Shown here in pieces: positions 50,263 through 51,885 of a stretch of 64,000 nucleotides of DNA (position 1 is the first letter of the stretch; each line of letters starts with the position of its first letter). The translations under genes and the position numbers were made by a program. The stretch comes from Escherichia coli (GTDB lineage: Bacteria; Pseudomonadota; Gammaproteobacteria; Enterobacterales; Enterobacteriaceae). The notes under the pieces were generated by a model. It was not told where the DNA came from and ran no database searches. It worked only from the letters and a program-made list of their open reading frames with translations. The stretch lies in assembly GCF_003334355.1 (NCBI RefSeq), contig NZ_QOWP01000005.1, one strand, 5' to 3'.

Positions 50263-51885
50263 ATGAATACTCTCCCTGAACATTCATGTGACGTGTTGAT
50301 TATCGGTAGCGGCGCAGCCGGGCTTTCACTGGCGCTACGCCTGGCTGACCAGCATCAGGTCATCGTTCTAAGTAAAGGCCCGGTAACTGAAGGTTCAACA
50401 TTTTATGCCCAGGGCGGTATTGCCGCCGTGTTTGATGAAACTGACAGCATTGACTCGCATGTGGAAGACACATTGATTGCCGGGGCTGGTATTTGCGATC
50501 GCCATGCAGTTGAATTTGTCGCCAGCAATGCACGATCCTGTGTGCAATGGCTAATCGACCAGGGGGTGTTATTTGATACCCACATTCAGCCGAATGGCGA
50601 AGAAAGCTACCATCTGACCCGTGAAGGTGGACATAGTCACCGTCGTATTCTTCATGCCGCCGACGCAACTGGTAGAGAAGTAGAAACCACGCTGGTGAGC
50701 AAGGCGCTGAACCATCCGAATATTCGCGTGCTGGAGCGCAGCAACGCGGTTGATCTGATTATTTCTGACAAAATTGGCCTGCCGGGCACGCGACGGGTTG
50801 TTGGCGCGTGGGTATGGAACCGTAATAAAGAAACGGTGGAAACCTGCCACGCAAAAGCGGTGGTGCTGGCAACTGGCGGTGCGTCGAAGGTTTATCAGTA
50901 CACCACCAATCCGGATATTTCTTCTGGCGATGGCATTGCTATGGCGTGGCGCGCAGGCTGCCGGGTTGCCAATCTCGAATTTAATCAGTTCCACCCTACC
51001 GCGCTATATCACCCACAGGCACACAATTTCCTGTTAACAGAAGCACTGCGCGGCGAAGGCGCTTATCTCAAGCGCCCGGATGGCACGCGTTTTATGCCCG
51101 ATTTTGATGTGCGCGGCGAACTGGCCCCGCGCGATATTGTCGCCCGCGCCATTGACCATGAAATGAAACGCCTCGGCGCGGATTGTATGTTCCTTGATAT
51201 CAGCCATAAGCCCGCTGATTTTATTCGCCAGCATTTCCCGATGATTTATGAAAAATTGCTCGGGCTGGGGATTGATCTCACACAAGAACCGGTACCGATT
51301 GTGCCTGCTGCACACTATACCTGCGGTGGTGTAATGGTTGATGATCATGGGCGTACGGACGTCGAGGGCTTGTATGCCATTGGCGAGGTGAGTTATACCG
51401 GCTTACACGGCGCTAACCGCATGGCCTCGAATTCATTGCTGGAGTGTCTGGTCTATGGCTGGTCGGCGGCGGAAGATATCACCAGACGTATGCCTTATGC
51501 CCACGACATCAGTACGTTACCGCCGTGGGATGAAAGCCGCGTTGAGAACCCTGACGAACGGGTAGTAATTCAGCATAACTGGCACGAGCTACGTCTGTTT
51601 ATGTGGGATTACGTTGGCATTGTGCGCACAACGAAGCGCCTGGAACGCGCCCTGCGGCGGATAACCATGCTCCAACAAGAAATAGACGAATATTACGCCC
51701 ATTTCCGCGTCTCAAATAATTTGCTGGAGCTGCGTAATCTGGTACAGGTTGCCGAGTTGATTGTTCGCTGTGCGATGATGCGCAAGGAGAGTCGTGGCCT
51801 GCATTTTACGCTGGATTACCCGGAACTGCTCACGCATTCCGGTCCGTCGATCCTTTCCCCCGGCAATCATTACATAAACAGATAA
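50263..51885 (+). CDS. nadB: L-aspartate oxidase NadB (540 aa)
   Basis: ORF translation with FAD-binding motif [10 protein letters not shown]. Confidence 0.97.

Follow-up and report, generated by a model that had tools for sequence, protein, structure and literature searches.

Short convergent gene overlaps at nadB/trmN and csiE/hcaT in Escherichia coli, and a candidate stem-loop inside the end of trmN

We analysed a 64-kb stretch of the Escherichia coli chromosome running from iscS to pssA (hereafter the window, with positions counted from its first letter), in which the convergent genes nadB and trmN (the current name of yfiC) overlap by 16 bp at their 3′ ends and csiE and hcaT overlap by 9 bp. 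We consider these to be ordinary and evolutionarily stable overlaps of convergent coding sequences (CDS), which were created and are held in place by the geometry of stop codons and serve as no dedicated regulatory device; we put the probability of this reading at roughly 0.85. Regulatory coupling of the paired genes is not required by this explanation.

The nadB CDS (L-aspartate oxidase, 540 aa) occupies 50263-51885 on the plus strand, with the stop codon TAA at 51883-51885, both in the list of open reading frames (ORFs) and in RefSeq on identical sequence, and its translation ends in ...SPGNHYINR*. The gene trmN, encoding the tRNA1(Val) m6A37 methyltransferase, lies on the minus strand at 51870-52607 (245 aa, 738 nt in RefSeq; stop TAA at 51872-51870) and its product ends in ...AFYLFM*; the ORF list holds a GTG-extended version reaching 52727. 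The two genes share positions 51870-51885 (TTACATAAACAGATAA), and within these 16 bp their third codon positions stand opposite each other. The second pair consists of csiE (stationary-phase inducible protein with a PRD domain; 5260-6540, plus strand, 426 aa, stop TGA at 6538-6540, C-terminus ...MLESA*), for which the ORF list uses an upstream ATG at 5239, and hcaT (MFS transporter; 6532-7671, minus strand, 379 aa, stop TGA at 6534-6532, C-terminus ...VVPSC*). These genes share TCAGCATGA at 6532-6540. Both overlaps had been pointed out in a preliminary description of this DNA, and the ORF list, the sequence itself and RefSeq annotations of identical sequence (strain HS for the 16 bp of nadB/trmN, strain 214-4 for the 9 bp of csiE/hcaT) confirmed them to the base. 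Absent from that description was a third convergent overlap of the window, the 4 bp TTAA at 37197-37200 common to mltF (35644-37200, plus strand) and tadA (37197-37700, minus strand). At all three junctions, of 16, 9 and 4 bp, ORFs on opposite strands have stop-proximal nucleotides in common, which makes them convergent overlapping CDS pairs.

The preliminary description had named a mis-called stop codon as the way in which the overlaps could turn out to be spurious, i.e. one stop in each pair would be wrongly annotated and the genes would not truly overlap. We found nothing in favour of this, and the reading is effectively refuted, with hardly any probability left to it. In RefSeq, and as full-length orthologues in 76 of 79 species of Enterobacteriaceae, nadB and trmN end at the same stops; the csiE and hcaT ends are the same in E. 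albertii, and their junction was recovered in eight taxa. In the window, none of the four frames meets an earlier in-frame stop. The C-terminal tail of TrmN is under strict purifying selection, and the csiE mRNA extends past its overlap. The ends given by RefSeq, the retention of both stops in those 76 species and the invariant TrmN tail together rule out a mis-called stop. For the kilobase around each junction, several complete genomes match at 100 % identity, and virtually all of the 5,426 complete E. coli genomes contain it.

The arrangement is not rare. There are 75 convergent overlapping CDS pairs in E. coli according to one count (Huvet and Stumpf 2014, PMC4161906) and about 704 convergent pairs in E. 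coli K-12 according to a 2026 preprint (bioRxiv 10.64898/2026.03.23.713779), so about 11 % of convergent pairs overlap. The window contains 10 convergent pairs with three overlaps (binomial P = 0.08 against the base rate of about 11 %), and chance suffices for this count. Convergent overlaps are known to arise through the loss or shift of a stop codon (Palleja et al. 2008, PMC2478687; PMC4161906), and only those longer than 60 bp have been regarded as suspect (Palleja et al. 2008, PMC2478687). In the accounts given by these two sources, and by Rogozin et al. 2002 as cited in PMC2478687, convergent overlapping pairs of prokaryotes are, like those described here, short 3′-3′ overlaps which result from the movement or loss of stop codons and are kept among related genomes. 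The pairs of the window resemble them in having interlocking stops (TTAA, TCATGA) or a stop set by the antisense strand, and nothing essential differs. Within this class nadB/trmN is a clean case, in which the invariant tail of one partner sets the stop and the last residues of the other throughout the family.

This last point comes from a species scan with one genome per species, which comprised 80 loci (more than 25 genera of Enterobacteriaceae, TrmN 71-97 % identical), 79 of them with both genes. The overlap was exactly 16 bp in the 76 species mentioned above, and the stop codons themselves varied between TAA, TAG and TGA. In the TrmN tail F-Y-L-F-M the residues F, Y, F and M were conserved in 76/76 and L in 75/76; the Leu and Phe codons vary synonymously. 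Where the TrmN Phe and Tyr codons (TTY-TAY) meet, their reverse complement reads TAR in the nadB frame, which is the nadB stop; without a change of Phe-Tyr in TrmN, nadB is bound to end at this position, 16 bp in. The last four residues of NadB vary (Y/H, I/M, N/K and R/K), and the variants are exactly the antisense of synonymous changes in trmN plus the choice of TAA or TGA as the trmN stop; the NadB residues directly upstream of the overlap are variable in both sequence and length. TrmN is therefore the constrained partner and the last four residues of NadB are passengers. None of the solved TrmN structures covers residues beyond about 169, hence they offer no structural explanation for the tail.

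Three species deviated from 16 bp, with overlaps of 8, 8 and 12 bp. One of the 8-bp overlaps (locus L009) was shortened by a 1-nt deletion in the nadB tail (around 3240-3250 of that locus) and the other (L036) by a 15-bp tandem duplication (ACTACATAAAGAGA...), also in the nadB tail (around 3200-3240). Both the deletion and the duplication are tolerated, so the NadB tail is dispensable. One species of the scan, Intestinirhabdus alba (L029), has lost nadB. About 100 bp beyond its trmN stop, where nadB is missing (3223-3420), we noticed the palindrome TGTTTGATTAAATAAACA, which resembles a NadR operator (the nicotinamide adenine dinucleotide, or NAD, box); this suggests that the nadB coding region was deleted and its promoter region left behind. 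The TAAACA within the 16-bp overlap of E. coli corresponds to no more than a half-site of this operator, and we dismissed it as a coincidence.

Little speaks against stop-codon geometry as the explanation. The 16-bp overlap is more rigidly kept than would be expected of drift alone, but the rigidity is explained by the invariance of the TrmN tail. A word-indexed protein search for distant relatives of TrmN brought up nothing below 70 % identity, and the more distant outgroups came from a search of representatives. The three outgroups (TrmN 50-54 % identical) showed no nadB/trmN overlap. In the first, nadB is convergent to trmN across a 70-bp spacer which holds a hairpin with a 9-bp stem; the second has an extra gene inserted between the two, and the third is without nadB. 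The overlap is therefore best seen as a derived state of Enterobacteriaceae that followed the loss of the spacer.

Within E. coli, the kilobase around the nadB/trmN junction (51400-52400) is much more polymorphic than that around csiE/hcaT (6050-7050). Among the 5,426 genomes, 368 matched the former at 90-95 % identity and only 1,460 at 99 % or more, the corresponding figures for the latter being 29 and 3,135. This hints at divergent or recombinant alleles of nadB-trmN among E. coli genomes.

At the csiE/hcaT junction the picture is looser. In all eight taxa compared, csiE was convergent to an hcaT-like transporter. The overlap is 9 bp in E. coli and E. albertii (TCAGCATGA), 6 bp in Citrobacter koseri and Salmonella (TCATGA) as well as in Citrobacter freundii (TCATAA), and 4 bp (TTAA) in Cronobacter and a further cluster of Enterobacteriaceae (P0097); in Lelliottia a gap of 3 bp separates the genes, which have no bases in common. 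The difference between Escherichia and Salmonella amounts to one additional Ala codon in Escherichia. As far as sequence comparison can tell, this drift between +3 and -9 bp is the pattern of neutral movement of interlocking stop codons.

In five of the loci (L086 and L088-L091; Citrobacter koseri, Salmonella, Lelliottia, the Enterobacteriaceae cluster and Cronobacter) the transporter is tightly convergent to csiE (around 4270-5420 of these loci) with no hca dioxygenase operon nearby, and its neighbours are glyA, yphA-like genes or others. The link of hcaT to phenylpropionate catabolism may thus be specific to E. coli. The closeness of the two genes has had a practical consequence as well, as curation of the Keio collection (PMC9431181) revealed that the primer for the csiE deletion was placed too far downstream and the deletion truncates hcaT (window 6532-6600).

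The preliminary description had further proposed that transcription of each gene must read into the antisense of its neighbour. With overlapping stops and no intergenic DNA, each complete mRNA is necessarily antisense to the end of the neighbouring gene, and published data bear this out. The pairs csiE-hcaT, mltF-tadA and nadB-yfiC are all named in Table 1 of ExcludonFinder among the 165 convergent excludons of MG1655 (Sanmartin et al. 2025, PMC12288877), a set defined by transcriptional overlap in at least 50 % of 58 MG1655 transcriptomes (PMC12288877). As a catalogue entry, this interpretation has thus been published before, and the finding is known. For csiE, Term-seq placed a primary 3′ end at MG1655 2666762 (LB, optical density 2.0) and classed it as antisense to hcaT (Adams et al. 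2021, PMC7815308, supplementary file 1). The reported 61-nt sequence corresponds to positions 6537-6597 of the window with one single-nucleotide polymorphism, which puts the end of the csiE mRNA at 6597 on the plus strand, about 57 nt past the csiE stop and inside hcaT. The transcript overlap that characterises an excludon is thus present in published data, through the ExcludonFinder entries for all three pairs and the mapped csiE end.

These same observations can be read in another way, namely that the overlaps are selected regulatory devices (excludons), in which polymerases collide and/or RNase III cleaves the sense-antisense duplex, so that induction of csiE in stationary phase or of nadB under NAD limitation lowers hcaT or trmN. 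The presence of three pairs in the ExcludonFinder core set, the roughly 57 nt over which the csiE transcript is antisense to hcaT, the tight junctions kept at both pairs in all genera examined and the persistence of csiE beside hcaT even where the hca operon is absent would agree with such a role. However, membership of the ExcludonFinder set follows automatically from overlapping CDS, the length of the csiE/hcaT overlap varies from +3 to -9 bp with one genus lacking it altogether, and the fixed length at nadB/trmN is accounted for by the constraint on the TrmN protein. The partners have no evident functional link, we saw no promoter-like excess at the junctions, and the published data contain neither a Rho region nor a 3′ end signal at nadB/trmN. 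The outcome which defines excludons is mutually exclusive expression through interference or RNase III (PMC12288877), whereas the pairs of the window are known as excludons from transcript overlap alone, an overlap here forced by the overlap of the coding sequences. Our search of the literature on nadB/trmN, csiE/hcaT and mltF/tadA found no data on reciprocal expression or RNase III for these pairs. The proposal of transcriptional interference or antisense regulation in the preliminary description accordingly found no supporting data, and stop-codon geometry explains the overlaps with no need for regulatory selection. We regard the regulatory reading as improbable.

Next we turn to the question of how such mRNAs end. 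The preliminary description had called for mapping of 3′ ends, and published Term-seq answers this in part. The csiE end lies beyond the overlap, as expected, and for nadB, trmN and hcaT no end was called. Folding offered no structural cause for the csiE end at 6597, as the sequence upstream of it folds no better than shuffled sequences (z = 0.2) and contains neither a strong hairpin nor a U-tract. A terminator-like hairpin with a T-run (GCTGGTGGCGCTGCCGGC AATGTTTTTG) lies at 6569-6586 on the minus strand, inside hcaT and about 35 nt before the hcaT stop; its complement is directly upstream of the csiE end, and matches of this kind occur at chance frequency (3 vs 1.4 expected). Canonical intrinsic terminators, i.e. 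a G+C-rich hairpin and a U-tract after the stop, were looked for at both junctions and rejected, as only weak matches with stems of 5-7 bp were obtained, at chance level (2 vs 1.1 and 3 vs 1.4 expected). Rfam 15 at the gathering threshold gave seven matches in the window and none at 6400-6700 or 51800-52100. For the third pair, a Rho-dependent region has been reported beyond the 3′ end of tadA, antisense within mltF, at MG1655 2697064 on the minus strand (PMC7815308). The preliminary description had concluded that there is no room for a terminator. This does not hold in that form, since signals forming 3′ ends can sit within the CDS of the neighbour, as the csiE end demonstrates, and since constrained complementary segments are found in the end of trmN directly after the nadB stop.

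We characterised these segments by folding and by comparing synonymous variation. A candidate stem-loop of the nadB-sense RNA, which we call helix 1, spans 51892-51936 on the plus strand, with the arms 51892-51899 (UGGGUCAG) and 51929-51936 (CUGGCCCA) in the E. coli fold. It begins 7 nt after the nadB stop, has a 29-nt loop and is antisense to trmN codons 224-239. A second element, hairpin 2, is a perfect 10-bp palindrome (GCATTCTCCC-gcctgcg-GGGAGAATGC) at 51960-51986, 75-101 nt past the nadB stop within trmN codons 208-216, and could form on both strands; its z-scores were -3.4 (plus) and -4.2 (minus) against dinucleotide shuffles and about -3.3 against synonymous shuffles. Further downstream, at 52016-52145 on the plus strand, the untranslated nadB read-through RNA would include a C-rich and G-poor stretch (C/G 1.9-2.6), which by composition could possibly serve as a Rho loading region; the published bicyclomycin data (PMC7815308) call no Rho-dependent region there.

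A sliding scan of the whole trmN with synonymous shuffles, which kept the TrmN protein and the codon usage of the gene in 39-76 species, gave a mean z below -1 only in the last windows, at 51880-51949 in the nadB sense (-1.2 to -1.5) and at 51936-52005 on both strands (-1.3 to -1.55). The remaining windows ranged from +0.8 to -0.9. A targeted test of 51889-51939 yielded a mean z of -2.06 for the nadB sense and of -1.17 for the trmN sense, in which helix 1 carries a C-A mismatch. Helix 1 alone reaches -8.5 kcal/mol on average and was part of the minimum free energy structure in 60 of 76 species in the nadB sense (at least 6 of the 8 pairs kept) and in 50 of 76 in the trmN sense. No comparable excess of structure over shuffles was seen on the nadB side of the junction, which is the 3′ untranslated region (UTR) of trmN.

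Synonymous entropy pointed to the same place, as codons 221-230 and 232-243, within the last ~35 codons, were the most constrained of the gene. The constraint concentrates on G225 (GGG in 72/76), P226 (CCA in 59/71), L237 (CTG in 73/76) and T238 (ACC in 72/76), while neighbouring wobble positions are free; these four wobble bases are exactly those which pair the arms of helix 1, and two of them belong to the non-preferred codons GGG and CCA. The constrained complementary stretches together with the palindrome at 51889-51986 suggest an RNA structure embedded in the trmN CDS.

Several observations weigh against this suggestion. The z-score of the E. coli helix 1 itself is only -1.3. RNAalifold with default settings recovered just the four invariant pairs of hairpin 2, and helix 1 appeared only in a run scored with RIBOSUM. 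Covariation is minimal, with one pair showing 5 double changes, and pairing of the whole structure equals that of shuffles. The arms of helix 1 barely vary, and covariation is nearly absent for that reason. Given both the covariation result and the default RNAalifold run, we keep the stem-loop as no more than a hypothesis. Only E. coli and its closest relatives have hairpin 2 with all 10 bp; elsewhere there is a 4-pair core set by the codons of S-P..G-E. No U-tract follows either helix 1 or hairpin 2. Term-seq data, including a search by coordinates of MG1655 2711900-2712399, contain no 3′ end for nadB or trmN, and the bicyclomycin data from the same study reveal no Rho-dependent region in this interval (PMC7815308). 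The synonymous constraint could also reflect something other than RNA pairing.

One reading of this kind holds that the constrained complementary segments of trmN are no functional RNA and arise as a by-product of the protein sequence (R-G-P, L-T-Q, S-P..G-E), of preferred codons, of codon-pair or translation-termination context or of a motif acting at the level of DNA, with the nadB 3′ ends left diffuse by Rho or collisions. Amino acids fix most positions of the helix, CTG, ACC and CAG are preferred codons anyway, and the near-invariant arms, the default RNAalifold result and the lack of a mapped 3′ end at the stem-loops fit it well. It accounts less readily for the non-preferred GGG and CCA, which supply two of the four wobble positions in helix 1 amid free neighbours, or for the mutual complementarity of just the two most constrained stretches of the gene. 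Nor does it explain why in 82 % of species the stability was above that of synonymous shuffles (z < -1), with a stronger effect in the nadB sense and nothing comparable in control regions of trmN and nadB. We hold this reading to be a serious contender that falls a little short of even odds.

Under the favoured explanation, stop-codon geometry, events probably unfolded as follows. The ancestor of Enterobacteriaceae would have lost a short nadB-trmN spacer, after which nadB read into the antisense of the last five trmN codons. From then on the Phe-Tyr codons of TrmN would fix the nadB stop 16 bp in, and the last four NadB residues would mirror synonymous changes in trmN. At csiE/hcaT the two stops would simply touch or be interlocked (TCATGA, TTAA; TCAGCATGA in Escherichia), with a junction that drifts among genera. 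Each mRNA would extend into the antisense of its neighbour and end inside the neighbour's CDS, as seen for csiE and as we infer for the other genes. The ends of all six mRNAs, including those of mltF and tadA, would presumably form through Rho, collision with the oncoming polymerase or trimming by exonucleases. For nadB, the two stem-loops antisense in the last ~35 codons of trmN, with the C-rich stretch behind them, may replace the intergenic hairpin; once a factor or a collision has stopped transcription, they would shield or set the 3′ end. That the constrained stem-loops have taken the place of the hairpin seen in the outgroup spacer is in our view an even bet; the arms of helix 1 are absent in the outgroups.

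A bolder version of the nadB step can be imagined, in which the function of the lost spacer hairpin was rebuilt inside the trmN CDS to the extent that the choice of codons (GGG, CCA), and even of amino acids (R-G-P, L-T-Q), is held for the sake of a stem-loop in the nadB 3′ UTR. Colliding polymerases might then also pause or terminate at these elements, in both directions. This is speculative and we think it rather unlikely.

Two known systems offer partial parallels. Bidirectional collision-driven terminators, as represented in Wang et al. 2022 (bioRxiv 10.1101/2022.10.23.513370) and in its citation of Ju et al. 2019, have stem-loops that lack a U-tract at the point where convergent units meet. 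The candidate hairpins after nadB, for which conservation gives mixed support, would resemble them, and the perfect palindrome of hairpin 2, which would form on both strands, would fit their bidirectional character. As described there, however, those terminators lie between genes, and their definition rests on overlapping, Rho-independent 3′ ends from both strands, whereas the candidate hairpins of nadB lie 7-101 nt past its stop inside trmN, with no 3′ ends mapped at them. In the second system, 3′ ends made by Rho are trimmed back as far as protective stem-loops (Dar and Sorek 2018, PMC6061677). The untranslated read-through RNA of nadB would be similar in containing candidate stem-loops without a U-tract, followed by a C-rich and G-poor stretch. 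It differs in that no Rho region is called at nadB in the published bicyclomycin data.

Elsewhere in the window, the seven Rfam matches were AsrC (antisense of rseC; 46849-47680), rncO (43852-44066), GlmY (31018-31165), the iscRS stability element (1320-1429), OhsC (40363-40439), naRNA4 (a REP-derived RNA; 2275-2346) and ES036 (54147-54189), all of which this region of E. coli is expected to contain. Relative to strain HS, the window is without IS1 between yphF and yphG (19165-19173) and without IS621 after srmB (54151-54152), and its middle block is only 98.9 % identical to HS.

As reported at the outset, the overlaps matter little, because bacterial genomes routinely contain short convergent overlaps and a published catalogue of overlapping transcription units already includes these pairs. 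They do mean that deleting or inserting bases at the end of one gene changes its partner too, and that each 3′ UTR is antisense to the CDS of the partner. The nadB/trmN pair provides a tidy teaching example of how an invariant C-terminus fixes the stop codon and the last residues encoded on the opposite strand across a whole family. The modest lead, and the mildly new point, is the synonymously constrained candidate stem-loop directly after the nadB stop. If it is real, the loss of an intergenic spacer would have moved a terminator-like constraint onto the synonymous sites of the neighbouring gene.

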